Shown: piece by piece, positions 2,579 to 27,045 of the stretch
How the letters are laid out: each line of letters begins with the position of its first letter
How positions within the stretch are numbered: the first letter of the stretch is position 1
DNA from: Candidatus Methanoperedens sp.
Lineage (GTDB): Archaea > Halobacteriota > Methanosarcinia > Methanosarcinales > Methanoperedenaceae
Reading direction: 5' to 3'
DNA length: 32,000 nt
NCBI GenBank assembly: GCA_041494705.1
Contig: JBGQBI010000002.1
Coordinates: forward strand, 180,001-212,000
Translations under genes and position numbers: made by a program
Notes under the pieces: generated by a model
Database searches by the model: none
What the model was told of the DNA's origin: nothing
The model's input: the letters and a program-made list of their open reading frames with translations, nothing else

Positions 2579-3439
2579 ATGTTTAGGGAATTTCGTATCG
2601 GAAATGGAAAAATTATTCAAGGCGACTGTTTAGAAGTTCTTAAAACCTTGTCTGAGAATGAAATAGTTTTAGCGTTCACTTCACCACCCTATTTAAATGC
2701 TATAAATTACGAAGAGCATGTTGAAAAGATTAAAGGCAAAAAAGAACGATGGGAGCGAAAAGATATTTCTTACGATGAATACAAGCAATTCTTGGTTGAT
2801 AGATTTCGGGAGTTGCTCAGAGTTGTTCGCCCTGGGGGATTCAACGTTGTGAACATTTCCCCCATTCTATGGAATGGTGAACGAACCCCCCTTCCTTTCC
2901 ACTTTGTTTCTTGGATGGAAGAGATAGGTTGGAAGTTCAAAGAAGACATTATTTGGGAAAAAACTGTAGCCCGCGATCGCAGATCTGGCGTTCTTTTACA
3001 ACATCCTTTTCCTGGTTATTACTATCCTAGCCTTGTTGCGGAGTATGTCTTTGTTTTCCAAAAACCCGCCGAGAAAAATAAAGATAATATTTATTGGTTT
3101 CGCACATCGAAAGAGAAAGAAAACAACCGCATCGACTTGTCAGACTATCAAGGCGAGAAGAGTAAAAATGTTTGGAAAATTCGTCCTGTTGCCCCACAAG
3201 AAAATATTCACCCTTGCCCGTTTCCAGTTGAACTTGCTGACCGGGTTATCCAACTTTATTCTTATAAAAACGATATTGTAATAGATATTTTTGCTGGAAG
3301 CGGACAGACAAATTTAGCTGCCGAAAGAGCTGGGAGGAAGCACATTGGTATTGAAATCCAGATTGAATATATTGACTACGCTGTTGAGCGGATTAATGCC
3401 GAGTTGGCTCAACAAACGCTTTGTCAATATGCGAGGTAG
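2579..3439 (+). CDS. Beta-class DNA methyltransferase acting on an exocyclic amino group. The SPPY motif favours N4-cytosine, but N6-adenine is not excluded.
   Basis: Motif IV, AFTSPPY, lies near the N-terminus. Motif I, DIFAGSGQT, lies near the C-terminus, which gives the beta-class order. The gene is AT-rich, with one hand-counted 60-nt line (2581-2640) at about 35% GC. Confidence 0.85.
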   Translation: MFREFRIGNGKIIQGDCLEVLKTLSENEIVLAFTSPPYLNAINYEEHVEKIKGKKERWERKDISYDEYKQFLVDRFRELLRVVRPGGFNVVNISPILWNGERTPLPFHFVSWMEEIGWKFKEDIIWEKTVARDRRSGVLLQHPFPGYYYPSLVAEYVFVFQKPAEKNKDNIYWFRTSKEKENNRIDLSDYQGEKSKNVWKIRPVAPQENIHPCPFPVELADRVIQLYSYKNDIVIDIFAGSGQTNLAAERAGRKHIGIEIQIEYIDYAVERINAELAQQTLCQYAR

Positions 3440-4598
3440 TAGTTTGAAAATCGATGCAAAAATTGAAAATCTAAAATATGAATCTACCCTTTGCCTACAA
3501 CTTAAAACATTCAGCATCGATGATTTCCCTTCAGGCGTTGCCTTCTCTAAGGCTGCTTTTCTTCTTTCCTACAAAAATAATATTTTTGCAATAAGTCATT
3601 GGGTTTCCCCAAAACGCACTCGGAGCTATCCTTACGCTCGTGTTTACGACACGATGAATACACGCACTCGTATTACGATAATTCCATTTCTCAAGGATGA
3701 AGGCAAAGATGGCGACAGAGATTTCATTCAGTGGGATACTGTTTCTCTCATGAGTCTGCTTGGAGTGTATGTTATTCTTGGCTATTACCACACGGCTAAA
3801 AAAAATTCCACCTACTCTCATAAGATTACCGATCAAGAATTCGATTACGATTACCTCAAAAGCCGCCTTGATGAGCTTTCACAGTATAAGCTTGACGCAC
3901 TTCACTGGAATCTAAACGAATTGAACAAGAACCTTCTAAGTGTTGCAGAATTAAGTAAACTTCATTACCAGAATATTTCAAAGAATACGGGCGTTGAAAT
4001 GCATGGTGAAAAAGGTGTTTCTGACCGAGTTAAAGTTATTCGTGAGAGTGTTGCTAAATTCCAAAGCAATTCAAGAGACCTCGCAGTTTCTGCGCAGAAT
4101 CGAGAGTATCAAACAACCCAACCAAAAGAAAGCGTAATAGAAGATAAGGCTACTATAACAATTAAAAATTATCTCGGAGGATTCTATTATTTCACCATTG
4201 ATGAGGTTTTGCTTTATGGAAAAGAACTCTTCTTGATGGAGAAAAAACATAGCTCAGGTGCTCTCGTTCCAAGTATTGCTGATATAAAAGATGGTCTTGT
4301 AAAAATGATGCTTTACACTAACTTCTCCGAAGTTCTTGTTTCTGGTGAGCCATACTCTCACCACCCTACTCTTGGATTGACTTCAGAAAACATACAAGGT
4401 TACTGTCATAACCTATCTACCGAACCCGAATTGAATTCTTTTTTTTCAAAAAATGCTTTCTCTAAAAAGGCTATCAAATCATTTATGGACTTGATTACCG
4501 AAGCAACAAAGAACAATTTTCTTGTTTTTCTTATGGACAGCAGAACACCAAAACTACAAAAAGAGATTGTTATAGAATACCTGAAACGAAAAAAATGA
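3429..4598 (+). CDS. Putative type II restriction endonuclease partnered with the adjacent methyltransferase. The family is not recognised.
   Basis: The long ORF overlaps the methyltransferase stop by 11 nt if it starts at ATG 3429. Alternative in-frame starts are 3396 and 3345. A PD-(D/E)XK-like arrangement, TID(286)...LME(299)KK(301), lies at nt 4200-4247. The gene shares the AT-rich composition of the methyltransferase. The nuclease function is inferred from context and this weak motif only. Confidence 0.5.
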   Translation: MRGSSLKIDAKIENLKYESTLCLQLKTFSIDDFPSGVAFSKAAFLLSYKNNIFAISHWVSPKRTRSYPYARVYDTMNTRTRITIIPFLKDEGKDGDRDFIQWDTVSLMSLLGVYVILGYYHTAKKNSTYSHKITDQEFDYDYLKSRLDELSQYKLDALHWNLNELNKNLLSVAELSKLHYQNISKNTGVEMHGEKGVSDRVKVIRESVAKFQSNSRDLAVSAQNREYQTTQPKESVIEDKATITIKNYLGGFYYFTIDEVLLYGKELFLMEKKHSSGALVPSIADIKDGLVKMMLYTNFSEVLVSGEPYSHHPTLGLTSENIQGYCHNLSTEPELNSFFSKNAFSKKAIKSFMDLITEATKNNFLVFLMDSRTPKLQKEIVIEYLKRKK

Positions 4599-4696
4599 AT
4601 CGGCAACTAATGGTCATAAAAAAGTTTTCTTGAAAAATAAGCCGCAAGATGGGGAAATGTGTTTATAGTTTCCTATACGTTAAAAAATTGAATATA

Positions 4697-5173
4697 ATGA
4701 GATTCGTAACTGACAGGATGCTTGGCAAACTTTCGCGCTGGCTTCGTCTTTTCGGGTATGATACCCTTGAAATCAAAAAGCAGGAGAACGAGGACGATGC
4801 ACTGCTGGCGCTTGCTGAAAAAGAGGGGAGGATTCTTGTTTCAAGGGACAGGGCGCTTGTCAGGAAAGCAATAAAAAGAGGGATAAGGACGTATTCTGTC
4901 CAATCGCCTGAAATCATGGAACAGCTCCGGGAGATGCAGGAGGAATTCGGGATTTCAACCGAGCCGCCACTTGACAGGTGCACTCTTTGCAACTCGGTTA
5001 TCAGGAAAGTCAAACCCGAAGAGATGGAAATTGTCAGGGCGAAGGATTATGTTTATCCTGACAGGCTGGGGGAGGGAACTGATTTCTGGCTCTGCGATAA
5101 TTGCGGGCAGGTTTACTGGCAGGGTAAGCACTGGGAGAATATTACGGAGAGGGCGGGGAGATTGAAAAAATGA
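4697..5173 (+). CDS. Mut7-C (DUF82) PIN-like RNase domain protein with a C-terminal zinc ribbon.
   Basis: MRFVTDRMLGKLSRWLRLFGYDT is the characteristic Mut7-C N-terminus. The C-terminal zinc ribbon is CTLCNS...CDNCGQVYWQGKHW. The ATG at 4697 is preferred over the track start at 4649. GC is host-like, with about 47% in line 4741-4800. Confidence 0.8.
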   Translation: MRFVTDRMLGKLSRWLRLFGYDTLEIKKQENEDDALLALAEKEGRILVSRDRALVRKAIKRGIRTYSVQSPEIMEQLREMQEEFGISTEPPLDRCTLCNSVIRKVKPEEMEIVRAKDYVYPDRLGEGTDFWLCDNCGQVYWQGKHWENITERAGRLKK

Positions 5174-10111: not shown

Positions 10112-10834
10112 ATGATACTTACCCCTTTTTTATATGGAAATGAGGAAACTATCGGGTTGCACGTTATCATTTCAAATATATTCTGGTGGGCTTCCCTTGT
10201 CCTGGTCATCACAGCATACAGGAACCGGAACCTGTGGAATGTAGGTGACATGCCGTGGACTTTTTTGTTTTTAACCTTCCTATTTTTCGGAATCCGCGAA
10301 TTAGGCCACCTGAGTAGTTCACCTTTGATTGCTTCCGTACGATATGTTTTCGGAATATGGGCTGCAATTTTTATGGCTTCTCTGTTTATCTACCTGTATA
10401 TTTTGATATGCCAGAGGAAAACAATTCCAAAGATTGCAACATATCTTCCGTTTGTTCTTGCTCTTCTGTTCCCGCTTGTCATGCTTTTCCTCTTTTTTGC
10501 CGGAATTAAATATGATGAGATGGAAAATATCATGTTTTCAATAGAAAATCTCGTATGGATAGCGGGAAGTTCAATAACCATTTTAACAACCTACATGCTC
10601 GGAACCCGGGCAACGGGAGGATTTGTAAAAGTATATATGTTATTCCAGATAGCGGCAATTTTCGCTCTTTTATGGAAATTCCTGGGTCTCATAGCAAGTA
10701 TGGGCTGCACAATACCCTATTCTATCAGAGAAACCCTTGAAACGCTTTTTGGGGTGTTTGCGATAATATCCGTATACGTATTGACAAAAATGCTAAAATC
10801 GTTAGCAAGGCACATTCACGGGCGATTAACATGA
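10112..10834 (+). CDS. Integral membrane protein of unknown function with about 7 predicted TM helices.
   Basis: The 240-aa ORF shows seven hydrophobic stretches of about 20 aa by eye. I recognise no catalytic motif. Its stop overlaps the next start as ATGA at 10831-10834. Confidence 0.7.
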   Translation: MILTPFLYGNEETIGLHVIISNIFWWASLVLVITAYRNRNLWNVGDMPWTFLFLTFLFFGIRELGHLSSSPLIASVRYVFGIWAAIFMASLFIYLYILICQRKTIPKIATYLPFVLALLFPLVMLFLFFAGIKYDEMENIMFSIENLVWIAGSSITILTTYMLGTRATGGFVKVYMLFQIAAIFALLWKFLGLIASMGCTIPYSIRETLETLFGVFAIISVYVLTKMLKSLARHIHGRLT

Positions 10835-11244
10835 CTACCAAAGCTGAATTATATCATCTTGCACTTGAGCAACTGGAAAATTCTACGGGTGATATTTTAA
10901 GCTCCGCACTGGTGACTGATGATGGGCTGATTATGGCAAGCACGACTTCAGGAGACGTAAACAAAGAAACCTTTGCGGCATACTGTGCGGCAGCGTTCAA
11001 ACGCGCCAGTGAGACTATGGAAGAACTTTCCAGCGAGAATATCGATACATTGCTTTTTGAATCCAAAAATAACCGCATCGTAACCGTGCGTGTTGGGGAA
11101 CATGCCCTTCTGGTAGTGTTGACCAGTAAGAATGTCCAGATGGGGCTTGTACTTATCAATATGCAAAGGACTGCCCAGAAAATAAAGGAATTAAGTGAAA
11201 CAAGTATTTTCACACCATCCGCGGTATTGGCGATAGCGTATTAA
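10831..11244 (+). CDS. Roadblock/LC7 (MglB-like) domain protein.
   Basis: The 137-aa ORF contains GDILSSALVTDDGLIMASTTSG...ETFAAYCAA, which matches the Roadblock/LC7 core pattern (G...A.LV..DGL.IAS). Confidence 0.75.
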   Translation: MTTKAELYHLALEQLENSTGDILSSALVTDDGLIMASTTSGDVNKETFAAYCAAAFKRASETMEELSSENIDTLLFESKNNRIVTVRVGEHALLVVLTSKNVQMGLVLINMQRTAQKIKELSETSIFTPSAVLAIAY

Positions 11245-11267
11245 CCAATTAACGAATCTGGAACGCA

Positions 11268-11813
11268 ATGAATAGGACGCAAGCTAAAACCAAAATATGG
11301 CTGGTTAACAATAAGGAAGAGCCGATTATGGGAGAAGGGAAGGCTGCTCTTTTAAAAGCTATAAATGAGGAAGGGTCGCTGAACAAAGCATGCAGGAAAG
11401 TGAAAATTTCATATAAACATGCATGGCTCCTGCTTAAAGAAATTGAAGAGAGCGCAGGTGAGCCTGTGATAATTAAAAAACGGGGTGGAAAAGCTCAAGG
11501 CACATTCCTGACCGAAAAAGCCATAAACTTACTTGATGAATATAATACATACGAAGTAATACTTGCACAAACCGTTTATGACAAAACTTTCTGGGAGGTG
11601 ATTGGGTTGAAAATCTCTGCAAGGAACCAGATGAAAGGCAAAGTAATAGAAGTTGAAAAAGAAGGTCTTATTGCAAAGGTTAAGATTTCTATCGAGCCAA
11701 CAACGATAACAGCGGTCATCACGAAAGAGGCTGCTGATGCTCTTGCAATCAAAAAAGATGATAAAGTACTGGCGGTTGTAAAGGCAACAGAAGTGATGAT
11801 CGGGAAAGAATGA
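11268..11813 (+). CDS. modE: ModE-like molybdate/tungstate-responsive transcriptional regulator with an N-terminal HTH and a single C-terminal Mop/TOBE domain.
   Basis: The N-terminal part, LLKAINEEGSLNKACRKVKISYKHAWLLLKEIEE...RGGKAQGTFLTEKA, is ModE-type. The C-terminal part, ISARNQMKGKVIEVEKEGLIAKVKI...VKATEVMIG, is a Mop/TOBE fold signature. Confidence 0.8.
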   Translation: MNRTQAKTKIWLVNNKEEPIMGEGKAALLKAINEEGSLNKACRKVKISYKHAWLLLKEIEESAGEPVIIKKRGGKAQGTFLTEKAINLLDEYNTYEVILAQTVYDKTFWEVIGLKISARNQMKGKVIEVEKEGLIAKVKISIEPTTITAVITKEAADALAIKKDDKVLAVVKATEVMIGKE

Positions 11814-11912: not shown

Positions 11913-12797
11913 ATGAAGAACATTTTTGCTAAAATAATTTTAGTTTCGATTTTAATATCGCTATTTGCCGGCTGCGTCCAGCAGGCACCGACTGGAAATA
12001 CAACATCCCCGACATCGACAGCATCCGCTCCGCAGGATTTGCACCTGGCTACGACCACTTCCACCTGCGATACAGGATTGCTCGACGTGCTGAACAAGAA
12101 ATTCGAGGATGAAAATAACGTGAAAATTCTGACTGTATGTGAGGGAACGGGCAAAGCTATAGCTACGGGTGAGCTTGGCGCTGCGGACGTTGTGATGGTG
12201 CACGCAGTCCAGGCTGAATTAAAAGCAGTTGCCAACGGGAGTTTCATAAACCGCAAATACATGATGTACAATTATTTCGTGATAATCGGACCTGAGAACG
12301 ATCCGGCTGGAATAAAGAATGCCAGCAATGCTACGGATGCCTTCCGCAGGATAGCCGCAAAGCAGTCTCCCTTCATATCACGCGGCGACAACTCGGGCAC
12401 AGATATAATGGAAAAATCAATCTGGAAAGCTGCAAACATCACGCCTGCTGGAACATGGTATCAATCAGTTGGCAAAGGCATGGGTGAGACCATCATAACA
12501 GCCGACATCAAGAATGGCTATACCCTCTCCGACAGGGGAACATTCCTTGCAATGAAGGATAAAATAAAACTGAGGCTCCTTTTTGAATCTGACCAGAAGT
12601 ATCTTTTCAACCCGTACCACGTCATGGCTGTGAACCCGGCGAAGTTCCCGAACGTGAAATACGACCTTGCAATGAAATATGTCAACTATACGACATCTCC
12701 GCAGGGACAGGATATCATAAGGAATTACGGTAAGGACAAATACGGTGAAGCGCTTTTCGTGCCCGAGGAAGATGCTGGCAACGTGACAAGTCCATGA
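11913..12797 (+). CDS. tupA: Tungstate ABC transporter substrate-binding lipoprotein, TupA family.
   Basis: A signal peptide with the lipobox LFAGC is present. TupA-type blocks follow: TTTSTCDTGLLD, GTGKAIA.GE.G.ADV..VHA, YNYFVIIGPENDPAGIK, ISRGDNSGT and YTLSDRGTFL. Confidence 0.85.
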   Translation: MKNIFAKIILVSILISLFAGCVQQAPTGNTTSPTSTASAPQDLHLATTTSTCDTGLLDVLNKKFEDENNVKILTVCEGTGKAIATGELGAADVVMVHAVQAELKAVANGSFINRKYMMYNYFVIIGPENDPAGIKNASNATDAFRRIAAKQSPFISRGDNSGTDIMEKSIWKAANITPAGTWYQSVGKGMGETIITADIKNGYTLSDRGTFLAMKDKIKLRLLFESDQKYLFNPYHVMAVNPAKFPNVKYDLAMKYVNYTTSPQGQDIIRNYGKDKYGEALFVPEEDAGNVTSP

Positions 12798-22355: not shown

Positions 22356-23090
22356 ATGAGCGGCGCTGACTTTTTGATACTGGGAATTATCAGGGCATTT
22401 GAACTGATATTCAGCTTAAACCCCTATATCCTGAGCATAACAGGCGTTTCTATCAAAGTATCCGGCACCGCTACGCTCCTCGCAACCCTGACCGCCATAC
22501 CACTTGCATTTGCTATCTCCTTCATGAACTTCCGCGGCAAGCAGGCACTGATTACACTTATCAATACAGGCATGGGGCTGCCATCTGTTTTTGTGGGACT
22601 TGTTATTTTCGTGATGTTCGTGCCTGCAGGTCCCCTGGGGCTTTTGAATATGATTTTTACGCAAAAGGCCATGATTTTAGCTCAGTATGTTCTTATCACG
22701 CCGGTTATAACAGGTATCTCGCTTGCTGCAATAAAAGCAGTTCCTCAACCGATAATCGAGACTGTTTACACACTCGGCGGCAACGAAAAAGACGCTGCGG
22801 TCACGGTTTTAAGAGAGGCAAGATTCGGCATCATCACAGCCGTACTTGCAGGACTCGGCAGGGCGCTTGCAGAAGTGGGCGCGATTCTCATAGTGGGCGG
22901 CAATATCGCTCTCACGGGAAGCGTGGGCGGGATAGGCGAGGGGCTTTCAGAGACGCGCACGCTCACGACAGCGATTACACTGGAAACGAGCAAGGGCGAT
23001 ATATCCACATCCATTGCTCTTGGGATTATCCTCATTTCCCTTGTCCTTTCTGTTAATATCCTGGCTAACTTTTTCCAGAGGAGGAGTTAA
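22356..23090 (+). CDS. tupB: Tungstate ABC transporter permease, TupB-like.
   Basis: The 244-aa membrane protein has a BPD-transporter loop, GRALAEVGAILIVGGNI...TRTLTTAITLETSKG. It sits directly upstream of the ATPase. Confidence 0.8.
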   Translation: MSGADFLILGIIRAFELIFSLNPYILSITGVSIKVSGTATLLATLTAIPLAFAISFMNFRGKQALITLINTGMGLPSVFVGLVIFVMFVPAGPLGLLNMIFTQKAMILAQYVLITPVITGISLAAIKAVPQPIIETVYTLGGNEKDAAVTVLREARFGIITAVLAGLGRALAEVGAILIVGGNIALTGSVGGIGEGLSETRTLTTAITLETSKGDISTSIALGIILISLVLSVNILANFFQRRS

Positions 23091-23819
23091 GTGGAGGAAT
23101 TGTTCAGGATTGAAAACGTCTGCATGACTTTCGGGAAAAAAGAAGTTTTAAAAAACATAAACCTGGGAATCAAGCGCGGCGAGATATTCGCCATAATAGG
23201 GCCAAGCGGCGCGGGAAAGACCACGCTTCTGCGGATACTTAACCTGTTTGAAAAACCCCTCTGCGGAACCCTGATATTCAACGGGATTTCCCTTGATGCA
23301 GGTAAAACCGGCAGCTTGAGGCGCAGGATGTCACTGCTTTTCCAGACGCCTTCTGTTTTTAACGGGTCGGTTTTTGATAATGTGGCGTATGGATTGAAGG
23401 TTCGCGGCTTTGACAAGAGGGCAATTGAAAAAAAGGTCGAGGAAGCCTTGAATACAGTTGGACTTCCCGGTATGGGGAAAGAAAAAGCCCGCATGTTATC
23501 AGGCGGAGAAGCGCAGCGTATGGCTTTTGCAAGGGCTATAGTCTATGACCCGGAGATACTTCTTCTTGATGAACCCACATCGAATCTTGACCCTGCCAAT
23601 GTGGCAAATATAGAGGAAATCATAAAACGCATAAGGGATGAGCGCGGGACGACAATCCTGATAGCGACACACAATATCCCCCAGGTGAGGCGGATTGCTG
23701 ACAGGGTGGGTGTGCTTTTAAACGGGGAATTAATCGAGGTGAATAGTAAAGAGGGGATTTTCACATCTCCACATGACGAAAGGTCGGCGGCGTTCATACG
23801 GGGGGAGATGATTTATTGA
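23091..23819 (+). CDS. tupC: Tungstate ABC transporter ATP-binding protein, TupC-like.
   Basis: Walker A is GPSGAGKTT, the signature is LSGGEAQRM and Walker B is LLLDEPTSNLD. The GTG start at 23091 has the SD GGAGGAG 5 nt upstream and a 0-nt gap to tupB. Confidence 0.8.
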   Translation: MEELFRIENVCMTFGKKEVLKNINLGIKRGEIFAIIGPSGAGKTTLLRILNLFEKPLCGTLIFNGISLDAGKTGSLRRRMSLLFQTPSVFNGSVFDNVAYGLKVRGFDKRAIEKKVEEALNTVGLPGMGKEKARMLSGGEAQRMAFARAIVYDPEILLLDEPTSNLDPANVANIEEIIKRIRDERGTTILIATHNIPQVRRIADRVGVLLNGELIEVNSKEGIFTSPHDERSAAFIRGEMIY

Positions 23820-23874
23820 ATTTATTATGCGAAAGTAGATAAGTACCTGAAAACACTATTTAGGAAGGGTAAAA

Positions 23875-25644
23875 ATGGATCACAATGGAAAATCCTCTGA
23901 AGTCATTTTCTTCCTAGGCGCAGGGGCATCAGTTCCAGCAGGTGTTCCTGATACATATTCTTTTGTTCAGGAATTCATTGATGATATTGACGAGGCTGAG
24001 AAAAAAGAAACCATTGAAAAGATAGTCCAAACCTTAGAAGTATGGAATTTAGAAGTATGGAAAAAATCTAAAATTGATATTGAACTTCTTCTAGAAACTT
24101 TAGTAAAACTTAAAGACAGAAAATATGAACCTTTACTGCAATTTTATGAAGGCAAAGCCTTCATCTTAAAAGGATATGCGGATAAGAAACCATTGATAGA
24201 TGATTTAAAAAATTTCATCAAATCTAGAGCAATCGTATCAGAAGAGGAGATTAAATATCTTCAACCTCTCCGTGGTTTTATAGAGGAATTTAGACCATTG
24301 GATATTATTTCACTAAATTATGATACTTGTATAGAGCAATTTTGTAATGTCCATAAGTTATCATATCAGGATGGCTTCGATGTCCACTGGAATCCCAAGA
24401 CATTTACCACAGAACATACAGATATTCGTCTTTACAAGTTACATGGCTCAGTAATGTGGTATCAAAGCGATAGAGGCGGTTATATTAAATCGCCTGTTAT
24501 GACGGATACAAGCAATATTCAGCTTATTACAGGTGAAAAAGCCGAGAATTTGATGCTGTATCCAATGCAAAAATGGGACTTTGCTGAGCCACTTTTGGAG
24601 TTGTTAGTAGAAATCAAACATCTTCTCGAATCCGAAACGTGTAAATTTTTAATTGTTGTTGGCTATTCTTTTAGAGATGATCACATCAGAAAAATCTTAT
24701 GGGATGCAGCAAGAAAAAATAAAAAGCTTCATATTATATTTATTGATCCAAAAGCGTATCAGATTTACGGTGAAAAACTCAAATATTACGATAAGCAGCA
24801 TAAAATTCCATCATCATTTGATGGAAAGGTCATCTGTCTACCATATAAGTTTGAAGATGTATTTCCTTATCTTAAAAACTATTACTTAACTCAGTTAAGA
24901 GCAGGTCTAAGTAGCGAGGCGGGTCAATATCAAGCAGAAATCCATGGAGGAAAAGCGAGTTGGATATCTTGCATTAGACCCTTTCTTAGTGCAGAATATA
25001 TTGAAAAAGCAGAAGAAATTTTGAAGAAGATAGAGACCTCTGAACTAAAGGGTGATTGGATGTTAAGTCTTGAACTCCCTCTGAAGATAGGAATTAATCT
25101 ATCCTCTAATCGGTTAGAAGAAAGAGCATCCAGATACACCAAATATTTTAATAGCCAACTATTTAAAATCGCAGTAGAAAGAATTAATGTGAGCATAGTT
25201 AGAAACCCTCCTGATTTTGATATTGAGATCAACTTCAATTACCGAGGCAATAAATCTGGTAGCAGCTACATTGGAGGGGAACAATTTAAGGAGTTCATTG
25301 AAACTCTATCTGAATTTTGTGAAACGAGGGAGAGATTCGTGAATAATATAGGAAAAGAATTTCAGAAAATCTCCAATCAGTTAAAAAAACTTAAACAGTA
25401 TTTAAAACCATTTAACAAAGGAAAAATTGAATTTGAAAGTTATATTGAGCTTAGAGAGAATGAGATACCTAACATTGAGCAATTCAGAAATGAGTATAAT
25501 CTGTTAAAAAAAGACTCACAATTACGAAATTTAGAGACAACTATCTTAGATGTTGAGCAAAGTATTTTAAAAGGATTTATTGGGATGAAACAAATCCGAC
25601 CCACGCATTCTAGAAGCAAGAGACAAATACATAAAAATGTATAA
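23875..25644 (+). CDS. SIR2_2-type (sirtuin-like, NADase-type) domain protein with an uncharacterised C-terminal domain of about 250 aa.
   Basis: The motifs occur in the expected order: FFLGAGASVPAGVPD (aa 12-26), SLNYDT (N148/D150), YKLHGS (H190) and VVGYSFRDDH (aa 261-270). The C-terminal region (aa ~340-589) is K/E/N-rich and I recognise no motif in it. Composition is AT-rich, with about 33% GC in line 24661-24720 against about 58% in tupC line 23641-23700 (both hand counts). Confidence 0.75.
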   Translation: MDHNGKSSEVIFFLGAGASVPAGVPDTYSFVQEFIDDIDEAEKKETIEKIVQTLEVWNLEVWKKSKIDIELLLETLVKLKDRKYEPLLQFYEGKAFILKGYADKKPLIDDLKNFIKSRAIVSEEEIKYLQPLRGFIEEFRPLDIISLNYDTCIEQFCNVHKLSYQDGFDVHWNPKTFTTEHTDIRLYKLHGSVMWYQSDRGGYIKSPVMTDTSNIQLITGEKAENLMLYPMQKWDFAEPLLELLVEIKHLLESETCKFLIVVGYSFRDDHIRKILWDAARKNKKLHIIFIDPKAYQIYGEKLKYYDKQHKIPSSFDGKVICLPYKFEDVFPYLKNYYLTQLRAGLSSEAGQYQAEIHGGKASWISCIRPFLSAEYIEKAEEILKKIETSELKGDWMLSLELPLKIGINLSSNRLEERASRYTKYFNSQLFKIAVERINVSIVRNPPDFDIEINFNYRGNKSGSSYIGGEQFKEFIETLSEFCETRERFVNNIGKEFQKISNQLKKLKQYLKPFNKGKIEFESYIELRENEIPNIEQFRNEYNLLKKDSQLRNLETTILDVEQSILKGFIGMKQIRPTHSRSKRQIHKNV

Positions 25645-25683
25645 AAAGAAAAATTACGCAAGGCAATTTTCACGGTGATAATA

Positions 25684-27045
25684 TTAACCCTCTATATTGC
25701 GCTTCATCACAGTCCCGAAAAAGCCATCCGTACCATGAACATGCGGCAGCGACCTGAAAAATCCTTCTTCTGTCATAAATTTGCCAAATATATCAGGGTT
25801 CATTTCAGAAGCAGGAACCATGTAGAAATCCATGTTCTCATCAAGAAACCCCCGCACAACTTCCTCATTTTCCTCCCTGCTGATGGTGCATGTTGCATAG
25901 ACAAGCCTCCCGCCAGGTTTTACAAGACTGCTATATTCCCTTATTATTTCTTTTTGCTTAGCAGAAAGCTCTCTTATATCCTCCTGTGTAAGCCTCCATT
26001 TCGAATCCGGGTTTCTCCTGAATACTCCCATGCCAGAACATGGGGCGTCTATCAATACGCAATCAGCCCGGCTTTTGTATTCACCAAGCATGTCAGTTTC
26101 AACAGTCCGGATATTCAAAGCTCCTGCCCTCGCTGCCCGCCGCCTCAGGTTTGCAAGTTTTGAAGCGCTGGTTTCAAAAGCAATAATGGTACCTTTATTC
26201 TTCATCAATCCTGAAAGGAAGAGGGACTTTCCGCCGTTTCCCGCGCATGCATCCACAACAAATTCTCCCGGCTTTGCCCCCGTAAGAAGTGTAATGAGCT
26301 GGCTGCCCTCGTCCTGCACCTCAAAAGCCCCGTTCGAAAAGGCATCTGTTTTAAAGATATCCTCTTTTTTATCAACAACAAGCCCGAAAGGCGAGAACAT
26401 AGTTGGCGATGAAGTATAGCCCTCCTGGTCAAGAGACTCCCGGAGAGATTCGCGTTTTGTCTTCAGGGGATTGGCGCGTATTGTTAAAGGAGGTTCGTGA
26501 TTATTGGCAGCGCATAGCGCTTCCACCACGCCTGGTCCATGAAACTCTTTCAGCCATTTTTCCACAATCCACGCAGGGTGTGAATGATATATTGAGATAT
26601 ATTCAAGAGGCGTTTTTTCTTTATCCGGGAAGATAACTTTATCCTGATTTCTTATTATCCCCTCAACCGTCCTTTTTACAAAACCTTCAAACTTTTTCTC
26701 ATCCACGCAAAGCGCTGTAGCGTTATTTATGATGCCGGCAGCCGATGCCCCGGTAAACGCTGCCTGGTAAGTGCAAATCCTGAGTATATTGAGAATATTT
26801 AAATCAACATCGGAAGGCGATACTCTTGATGCATGTCCGATAATATAATCAATCCGCCCCTGATGACGCAGGATTCCGTAGGTGAACTCAACGATGGTTG
26901 CTTTTTCGGCTGATGAAAAAGTTTCATTTTTAAAAATCCCGCCAAGCAGCACGTCTGGATATTTTTTTCCAGATAATATTGATTTCAGGAGCTGCAGGAT
27001 AACGAAATACGCTTTTTGTCTTATGAAAATGCTGTTATTTCTCAA
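25684..27045 (-). CDS. NOL1/NOP2/Sun-family RNA (cytosine-C5) methyltransferase with an N-terminal NusB-like domain.
   Basis: The SAM motif is VDACAGNGGKS. The catalytic motifs are DAPCSGMGVFRRNPD (PC) and YATCTISREENE (TC). The track start at 27045 is a TTG and there is no early ATG, so the exact start is uncertain. Confidence 0.85.
   Translation of the reverse strand: MRNNSIFIRQKAYFVILQLLKSILSGKKYPDVLLGGIFKNETFSSAEKATIVEFTYGILRHQGRIDYIIGHASRVSPSDVDLNILNILRICTYQAAFTGASAAGIINNATALCVDEKKFEGFVKRTVEGIIRNQDKVIFPDKEKTPLEYISIYHSHPAWIVEKWLKEFHGPGVVEALCAANNHEPPLTIRANPLKTKRESLRESLDQEGYTSSPTMFSPFGLVVDKKEDIFKTDAFSNGAFEVQDEGSQLITLLTGAKPGEFVVDACAGNGGKSLFLSGLMKNKGTIIAFETSASKLANLRRRAARAGALNIRTVETDMLGEYKSRADCVLIDAPCSGMGVFRRNPDSKWRLTQEDIRELSAKQKEIIREYSSLVKPGGRLVYATCTISREENEEVVRGFLDENMDFYMVPASEMNPDIFGKFMTEEGFFRSLPHVHGTDGFFGTVMKRNIEG

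Follow-up and report, generated by a model that had tools for sequence, protein, structure and literature searches.

A SIR2 gene with a family-specific C-terminal domain as a candidate single-gene immune module at a variable cargo hotspot in Methanoperedens

A candidate stand-alone immune gene

In a 32,000-nucleotide (nt) stretch of the genome of Candidatus Methanoperedens sp. (GCA_041494705.1, contig JBGQBI010000002.1, positions 180,001 to 212,000; hereafter, the window), one gene encodes a 589 amino acid (aa) protein that joins an N-terminal SIR2 domain to a C-terminal domain shared only by the members of its own family. We propose, at a probability of roughly 0.6, that this gene is a self-contained single-gene NAD-consuming immune module of the SIRim (SIR2_2) class. 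It is carried as accessory cargo between tupC and nop2, a junction that is a variable cargo/defence hotspot in Methanoperedens. Immunity makes repeated use, from bacteria to humans, of SIR2 effectors that deplete NAD+, and to our knowledge nearly all mechanistic work on them concerns bacterial systems with known sensors (pAgo [prokaryotic Argonaute], HerA, SLOG, and DSR repeats). An initial annotation of the window had read the gene as a stand-alone SIR2 effector of undescribed architecture. This description held: no partner recurs in about 90 family loci, no model in PADLOC, NCBIfam, or Pfam covers the full architecture, and full-text literature searches found no paper describing a SIR2 domain with this C-terminal domain. 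The function itself is suggested by homology and context. The gene and its parts are as follows (window coordinates).

23875..25644, + strand: SIR2 plus C-terminal-domain gene, stop codon included (open reading frame [ORF] list; 589 aa, ATG start)
23890..24849, + strand: SIR2_2/SIRim-type NAD-binding catalytic domain, aa 6–325, with a helical insertion at about aa 27–140 (Pfam, PADLOC, Foldseek)
23917..23931, + strand: glycine-rich NAD-binding loop GAGAS, aa 15–19 (from the sequence; G15, G17, and S19 invariant, A16 and A18 at least 90% conserved)
24316..24324, + strand: catalytic N148-Y149-D150 in SLNYDT, invariant in 46 sequences (N148 codon at 24316–24318)
24442..24444, + strand: catalytic H190 in YKLHGS, invariant in 46 sequences
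24850..25581, + strand: family-specific C-terminal domain, aa 326–569 (AlphaFold2), proposed as a regulatory or sensor module
25582..25641, + strand: disordered 20-aa tail MKQIRPTHSRSKRQIHKNV, aa 570–589 (predicted local distance difference test [pLDDT] below 50 at residues 573–589)

The ATG start is backed by the alignment, in which 45 homologues start at the same position. An identical protein is encoded on 6 public contigs, one of them a 2.07-Mb JGI contig.

The SIR2 domain is closest to antiphage SIR2 proteins

The four motifs named by the initial annotation (GAGAS, SLNYDT, YKLHGS, and VVGYSFRDDH, the last at aa 261–270) were all found where it had placed them, and its assignment of a SIR2 catalytic domain agrees with Pfam. 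SIR2_2 (PF13289) was matched with 46.5 bits against a cut-off of 24.5 (E = 5e-12), whereas the classical sirtuin family PF02146 gave no match to the protein at an E of 1 or better. In the 46-sequence alignment, G15, G17, S19, N148, D150, H190, G263, and S265 are invariant. The set N148/D150/H190 aligns with N163/D165/H212 of the Paenibacillus SIR2 (PsSIR2), which are the putative catalytic residues of a protein whose catalytic mutants lose phage protection (PMC11472057).

Twenty-five PADLOC models of defence SIR2 proteins match the N-terminal 300 aa, with Aga_SIR2 at the top (PDLC02408, E = 1.4e-33; protein aa 6–296 to profile positions 4–292 of 343), and none of the 25 reaches into the C-terminal region. 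The NCBIfam equivalogs stayed below their cut-offs: SIR2_antiphage scored 43.5 vs 500 bits (a partial match, aa 181–293), Dsr1 13.7 vs 1400, and protein deacylase 12 vs 221 (N-terminal loop only). Judged by these profiles, the protein belongs only to the broad SIR2_2/SIRim superfamily. Using the family alignment, AlphaFold2 gave a full-length model with a pLDDT of 87 and a predicted template modelling (TM) score (pTM) of 0.86. When this model was compared to PDB with Foldseek, the SIR2 subunits of SIR2-HerA came first (E about 1e-9 to 3e-10, TM 0.54–0.65 on the target); human FAM118B (9r0p, E = 2e-4) and the SPARSA SIR2-APAZ protein (8jl0_A, E = 2.7e-4, 309 columns that correspond to the SIR2 part) were also matched, classical sirtuins scored E = 1e-3 or weaker, and DSR2 (8wye) had E = 6e-3 with TM 0.18–0.27. 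The predicted SIR2 fold is nearer to antiphage SIR2 than to classical sirtuins.

The C-terminal domain defines the family

The remaining ~250 aa had initially been described as helical or coiled and as matching no family. The second part of this description stood, and the first did not: the region is neither coiled nor of low complexity, and AlphaFold2 applied to it alone predicts an alpha/beta domain with a pLDDT of 91, made of helices (326–435), a three-stranded antiparallel sheet (438–467), and further helices (468–569). No family match to the domain was obtained in Pfam, PADLOC, or NCBIfam. Foldseek searches with its model returned nothing significant in PDB (best E = 0.4, TM 0.28 or lower) or among the viral structures of BFVD (best E = 0.16), and a profile of 34 C-terminal sequences gave, against all PDB sequences, a best E of 0.09 from a spurious BiP match. 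Searched member by member, no Pfam family was found in more than 3 of the 34 domains, and the matches were coiled-coil or TPR noise. Across these searches no housekeeping or classified defence module emerged; a match to such a module was what the initial annotation had named as counting against a defence role.

A phmmer search with a single C-terminal sequence produced 67 matches among 1.84 billion representative proteins. All full-length matches (557–604 aa) hold the domain at about residues 315–580, and the short matches inspected are N-terminally truncated fragments, each still with the end of the SIR2 domain. In this protein set the domain was seen solely behind the SIR2 domain of the family, and because it is found in no other architecture, it defines the family. 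It is kept in every full-length member, down to 31% identity. Mean pairwise identity within the family is 64% for the SIR2 domain and 31.5% for the C-terminal domain, and on these alignments the latter is estimated to evolve about twice as fast. The basic tail MKQIRPTHSRSKRQIHKNV is missing from other family members, most of which stop at about aa 569 in the C-terminal alignment, and could have arisen as a side effect of the insertion at its right boundary.

Proposed mechanism

In the mechanism that we propose, the N-terminal domain would be an NAD+-consuming enzyme (NADase) that is inactive in the uninfected cell. The family-specific alpha/beta domain would restrain it and would answer a trigger derived from an invader, most probably a viral protein or one from another mobile element. 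Its activation, which probably goes along with self-assembly, as is the case for other defence sirtuins, would deplete NAD+ and make the infected cell stop growing, an abortive infection. As accessory cargo, the module would move, in Methanoperedens, into the slot between the convergent stops of tupC and nop2. By analogy with DSR2, ThsA, SIR2-HerA, and FAM118B, we infer that the enzyme is an NADase, that it is autoinhibited, that the C-terminal domain acts as a sensor or controls assembly, and that infection is aborted. A more specific version, in which the C-terminal domain would have a new fold, recognise directly a conserved protein encoded by archaeal viruses or by the large Methanoperedens extrachromosomal elements, and activate the SIR2 NADase by self-assembly, is offered tentatively, with the odds against it.

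Several points weigh against this proposal. SIR2 domains can act as ADP-ribosyltransferases, and the catalytic set of NADases is also used by ADP-ribosylating sirtuins. The role of the C-terminal domain may be that of a sensor, an oligomerisation scaffold, or an autoinhibitor. Although individual members of the family often lie among defence genes, the copies at three loci (L006, L009, and L111; L numbers denote the loci compared) are in ordinary housekeeping neighbourhoods. In addition, the SIR2 protein of SIR2-HerA also shows nuclease activity (PMC11472057).

The gene could serve immunity or conflict by another route, through ADP-ribosylation of a specific protein or nucleic acid of the invader or host, or through a second activity such as that of a nuclease, with the C-terminal domain recruiting the substrate. 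The catalytic set shared with ADP-ribosylating sirtuins fits such a role, as does the nearest solved fold, given that the SIR2 of SIR2-HerA is reported to gain both NADase and nuclease activity in the complex (PMC11472057), and the C-terminal domain is without precedent, so that its role is free. However, the characterised SIRim-type defence effectors in the literature examined act mainly via NAD+ depletion, and the sequence gives no pointer to a specific target. We consider this route improbable.

Comparison with known SIR2 systems

By logic, the nearest system to the proposed NAD-consuming module is DSR1/DSR2, in which one polypeptide combines an N-terminal SIR2 NADase with a C-terminal sensor of phage proteins (DSR) and needs no partner gene. 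The single-gene, N-terminal SIR2 layout is the same, but DSR proteins have about 1000–1260 aa and long helical-repeat C-termini, whereas the window protein has 589 aa and a compact 245-aa alpha/beta domain, and neither the Dsr1 equivalog nor a full-length DSR2-like fold was matched. Thoeris ThsA (SIR2-SLOG) is likewise a two-domain SIR2 effector, whose C-terminal domain controls the NADase activity, and activation by filament or oligomer formation is a plausible shared theme. In contrast to the Rossmann-like SLOG domain, the domain of the present family is predicted to be mostly helical with a three-stranded antiparallel sheet; no ThsA or SLOG match was found in Pfam, PADLOC, or PDB, and no TIR ThsB gene is a neighbour. 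The initial view that the protein differs from DSR1/DSR2 and carries no SLOG domain is in line with these results. The eukaryotic SIRim proteins (FAM118B/SIRanc) share the fold of the SIRim subfamily and are often fused to unidentified extra domains, but FAM118B is a filament-forming vertebrate protein of about 300–350 aa with no homology to the C-terminal domain of this family. Classical sirtuin deacylases (PF02146, CobB/Sir2) are set apart in that neither their SIR2 model nor the deacylase equivalog was matched.

The systems that are nearest by fold and by sequence profile depend on a partner. SIR2-HerA (Nezha) provides the nearest solved fold for the SIR2 domain, with an N/D/H catalytic set that aligns, but its SIR2 has about 340–400 aa, assembles into 12- to 14-mers, and depends on a HerA ATPase encoded next to it. 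The window protein, in contrast, has an extra C-terminal domain, no HerA either in the window or among 149 family neighbours, and no match to the SIR2_antiphage equivalog. Aga_SIR2, the nearest by sequence profile, is probably bAgaS of the long-B pAgo BPAS systems, which is likewise of the Sir2_2 type. BPAS systems are operons with pAgo, whereas no pAgo was found in either the window or some 90 family loci, and the Aga_SIR2 profile stops where the C-terminal domain of the family starts. The SIR2-APAZ protein of SPARSA is similar in length (8jl0_A, 573 aa) and also has its SIR2 domain at the N-terminus. However, the C-terminal model compared to the APAZ domains of SPARSA/SPARTA gave a best E of 2.2 (TM 0.08), the PADLOC model SIR2-PNTD1-PNTD2 matches aa 6–57 only, and there is no short pAgo neighbour. 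An orphan SIR2-APAZ protein, an idea raised because of the protein length and the Aga_SIR2 match, was rejected, given that 8jl0_A aligns with the SIR2 part only, no APAZ match was obtained, and the SIR2-PNTD model is confined to aa 6–57.

No recurrent partner gene

Neighbour genes were clustered over 87 loci, of which the metagenome scan supplied 80 and contig look-ups together with the genome scan the other 7; with further loci, the total is about 90. No neighbour family occurs in more than 3–4 of the 87 loci, and those that do (DUF4159, DUF4175) reflect lineage synteny. PADLOC on 149 family neighbours found methyltransferases, HmaB, PDC-S02, and PD-(D/E)xK nucleases, and no pAgo, HerA, or TIR. 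In the window, Pfam and PADLOC over the 32 other genes found no pAgo, HerA, TIR, or other partner, as the initial annotation had stated for TIR ThsB, HerA, and pAgo. The insert itself holds 55 nt before and 39 nt after the gene, and therefore has no room for a second gene. A hidden partner gene was rejected on the clustering and the PADLOC search, which showed lineage synteny only.

These results bear on the reading of the protein as an orphan effector of a multi-gene system, with its partner (a pAgo, a HerA-type ATPase, or a signal-producing enzyme) acting in trans from elsewhere. Its top profile match is Argonaute-associated and its top fold match comes from the two-gene SIR2-HerA, as such an orphan might show. 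Nevertheless, the neighbourhoods are without a recurrent partner, the mobile unit at the hotspot is one gene, and the fused 245-aa domain, present family-wide and starting where the Aga_SIR2 profile ends, is an obvious substitute for a partner. Partnership in trans is accordingly given little credence, and a self-contained module is preferred.

Although no partner recurs, several bacterial copies lie in defence contexts. At L008 and L028, the SIR2 gene is inside an Hma helicase-methylase-ATPase system, directly after HmaB (DUF1156 methylase). The order at L008 (L008:1955-13061) is SIR2, an MNT/HepT pair, and HmaC (DUF499); the L028 system spans L028:917-5340. HEPN/MNT modules and SIR2 may travel together (L008, and L108 described below). 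Further contexts of defence type include a type IIG restriction-modification (R-M) enzyme adjoining the L105 copy, an Mrr-type nuclease near the L109 copy, ABC-3C CTD10/DUF2326 genes adjoining the L110 copy, and ParE and NERD genes near the L007 copy.

The tupC–nop2 junction as a cargo hotspot

In the window, the SIR2 gene is the sole ORF in the 1.86-kb segment from the tupC stop to the nop2 stop. The ORF list and Pfam agree with the placement given initially, between the end of a 12-gene co-directional operon (tupA to tupC) and a convergent nop2 gene. The operon order is tupA, fmdE, fwdF/G, fwdA, fwdC, fwdD, fwdB, fdhD, aldehyde dehydrogenase, moeA, tupB, tupC, and a modE-like regulator precedes tupA. 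Orthologues of tupC are 72–97% identical across 14 Methanoperedens loci, and nop2 orthologues were found in 18 loci, those with 63–92% identity being from Methanoperedens metagenome-assembled genomes (MAGs). The features around the gene are listed below.

23091..23819, + strand: left flank, tupC-type ABC ATPase (Pfam ABC_tran), which closes the tupA-fwd-moeA-tupBC operon
23820..23874, + strand: 55-nt upstream spacer with, by eye, a TATA-like TTTATTAT (about 23822–23830) and a ribosome-binding-like motif GGAAGGG 7–14 nt before the ATG
23820..25692, no strand: inserted cargo segment of about 1.87 kb (GC 0.33), which stands in for a 20–64 bp spacer and gives nop2 3 new codons and a stop
25684..27045, − strand: right flank, convergent NusB/RsmB-F (nop2/sun-type) rRNA methyltransferase (Pfam NusB, RsmF-B_ferredox, Methyltr_RsmB-F)

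The TATA-like TTTATTAT is a putative promoter, and read-through from the tup operon may also occur.

We compared the junction in 15 Methanoperedens genomes or contigs, the window lineage included. The SIR2 gene is missing at 13 of them, of which nine are empty and four hold unrelated cargo (PDC-M57 at one and other ORFs at three), and the two SIR2 copies belong to different subclades. The initial annotation had argued that a gene fixed at this junction in most relatives, with host-like composition, would speak against defence; the gene is mostly missing there, and the composition of the SIR2 copies is never host-like. The junctions are as follows.

L011, L012, L013, L014, L017, L018, L021, L024, L026: empty, 20–64 bp spacer
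Window lineage, 23820-25692: SIR2 of the window type
L108:6943-9792: HEPN/MNT pair and SIR2 of the other subclade (64% identity to the window, 77% to L006)
L010:7348-8639: PDC-M57A and PDC-M57B, a complete PADLOC candidate system (E = 6e-51 and 2e-98), GC 0.28
L015:7351-8536: 243-aa and 65-aa ORFs, no Pfam or PADLOC match
L016:7348-8263: 255-aa ORF, no Pfam or PADLOC match
L019:7339-7864: 164-aa ORF with a GIEIK (ExK-like) motif, no Pfam or PADLOC match

Three of the junction inserts have a GC of 0.28–0.30. At two further loci (L004 and L025), the SIR2 gene adjoins nop2, with a left flank that is different or unknown.

DNA alignment of the window with five empty-site genomes and the PDC-M57 genome located the breakpoints, the left one at the tupC stop and the right one within the last nop2 codons (window 25684–25695). 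The nop2 product ends, before its stop, in VMRRN at empty sites, VMKRNIEG in the window, VMRRKKN at L108, VMRRNDEYHESQQKP at L004, and VMRRESVLGL at L010. Each cargo leaves its own nop2 tail, and the cargoes therefore represent independent insertions into one hotspot; the terminal residues of nop2 evidently tolerate replacement, as read from these tails. A mobile-element signature was sought at the insert and rejected: direct and inverted repeats at its ends were no more than expected by chance, and no tRNA, Rfam element, integrase, or transposase was found. One short contig (L003, Logan SRR35969293, corresponding to window 23055–26038) is 100% identical to the window over 23055–25759 (tupC, SIR2, and ~76 bp of the nop2 3' end), and from 25760 it shows 24 mismatches in 279 bp (8.6%) inside nop2. 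This sharp mosaic boundary suggests recombination of the flank, or an assembly chimera.

The position of the gene could also point to a non-immune accessory enzyme, an NAD-dependent deacylase or a metabolic regulator, possibly tied to the tungsten/formylmethanofuran operon. The gene runs in the same direction as the tup operon and starts 55 nt after its end, another Methanoperedens copy immediately follows a tupA orthologue (85% identity), and some sources label family members 'NAD-dependent SIR2 family protein deacetylase'. Yet most close relatives have the same operon without the SIR2 gene, and the other cargo of the slot is a defence candidate. Members in unrelated bacteria lie inside the Hma and R-M islands described above, and classical sirtuins are both unmatched as models (12 vs 221 bits) and ranked below antiphage SIR2 in the fold search. 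Such an enzyme is, in our view, quite unlikely, and an immune module remains the favoured reading. That the gene is a decaying or inactive remnant, as its atypical 20-aa tail and the altered nop2 end might suggest, is scarcely credible for an intact frame with all invariant family residues, a conserved C-terminal domain complete through E561, and an identical protein in several independent samples.

Distribution, descent, and composition of the family

Homologue searches revealed a large and tight family of proteins of about 570 aa, which share 43–72% identity over about 97% of their length, and PF13289 is present in all homologues among the matches listed (at least 120). The carriers are bacteria and archaea (Methanoperedens, other Methanomicrobia and Halobacteriota, and Asgard Helarchaeota). 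Identity between archaeal and bacterial copies reaches 65–66%, which argues for inter-domain transfer. The copies from Methanoperedens group in a clade of their own that is split in two, one subclade comprising the window and L004 and the other L025, L006, and L108, and they occupy at least two loci, one adjacent to nop2 and one adjacent to tupA. A search for carriage by viruses or plasmids was negative: no relatives of the family were found on IMG/VR viral contigs or in INPHARED phages, and PLSDB plasmids gave remote SIR2-domain matches only.

In terms of composition, the SIR2 gene has a GC of 0.334 (GC3 0.285), compared to 0.455 ± 0.037 for the 32 other genes of the window (z = −3.2). The initial annotation had called the gene foreign on a contrast of about 33% with about 58% in tupC; the low value for the gene was reproduced, but tupC is at 48.0% (0.480), so the contrast is smaller, and nop2 is at 44.7%. 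Family copies range from 0.31 to 0.41, compared to 0.40–0.53 for their hosts, and all copies checked are AT-rich relative to the host. Low GC, a trait of the family, supports an accessory or mobile status. It was rejected as insufficient proof of recent transfer: AT-richness is family-wide in all hosts, so that on its own it gives no date for the acquisition, and the Methanoperedens copies are a separate clade.

Individual Methanoperedens loci provided additional observations. At L006 (L006:6757-9716), a distance of 360 bp separates the SIR2 homologue (63% identity) from the tupA orthologue upstream of it, whose identity to window 11913–12797 is 85%. SIR2 copies thus adjoin tungstate-transporter genes at two different Methanoperedens loci, which may be coincidence or preference. 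The 3.3-kb contig L025 (VEPD01000406.1, labelled Ruminiclostridium sp. MnB_11) carries a nop2 that is 69% identical to Methanoperedens nop2 together with a SIR2 gene of the Methanoperedens clade, and is probably archaeal DNA that was binned with a bacterial MAG. Assembly GCA_040960625.1, which contains L004 and L108, has two nop2 loci, one next to a SIR2 gene with 72% identity to the window copy and one next to a SIR2 gene of another subclade with 64% identity, and probably mixes two Methanoperedens strains.

Other features of the window

A second AT-rich stretch (2579–4598, GC 0.37–0.39) holds a probable type II R-M pair, in which an N6_N4 DNA methyltransferase (2579–3439) overlaps a 417-aa ORF (3345–4598). 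The 417-aa ORF had no Pfam or PDB match. PADLOC on the window genes reported REase_II (E = 1.9e-83) and MTase_II (E = 1.9e-56), and the REase match was assigned to the 417-aa ORF by adjacency. A Mut7-C RNase gene (4649–5173) comes after the pair. On the 5' side of tupA, the region 10112–11813 encodes a 240-aa ORF without a Pfam match, a Roadblock/LC7 protein (10831–11244), and a ModE-like helix-turn-helix plus TOBE regulator (11268–11813), and this set may regulate the tungsten/fwd operon.

Significance

SIR2 abortive-infection effectors are known as a kind; what is new here is the fused C-terminal domain in a single-gene arrangement that spans archaea and bacteria. The family adds a compact autonomous architecture, well represented in archaea, whose proposed regulatory domain has no detectable relative. 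With one gene of 570 aa and clear catalytic-dead controls, it is a clean candidate for experiment. If direct recognition of the invader is true, the family would represent a new kind of single-protein immune receptor common to archaea and bacteria, and the tupC–nop2 junction would be the first mapped defence hotspot in anaerobic methanotrophs. At this slot, strains that carry the gene can be set beside strains that naturally lack it, and such comparisons could connect defence content with the viruses and extrachromosomal elements by which methane-oxidising communities are shaped.

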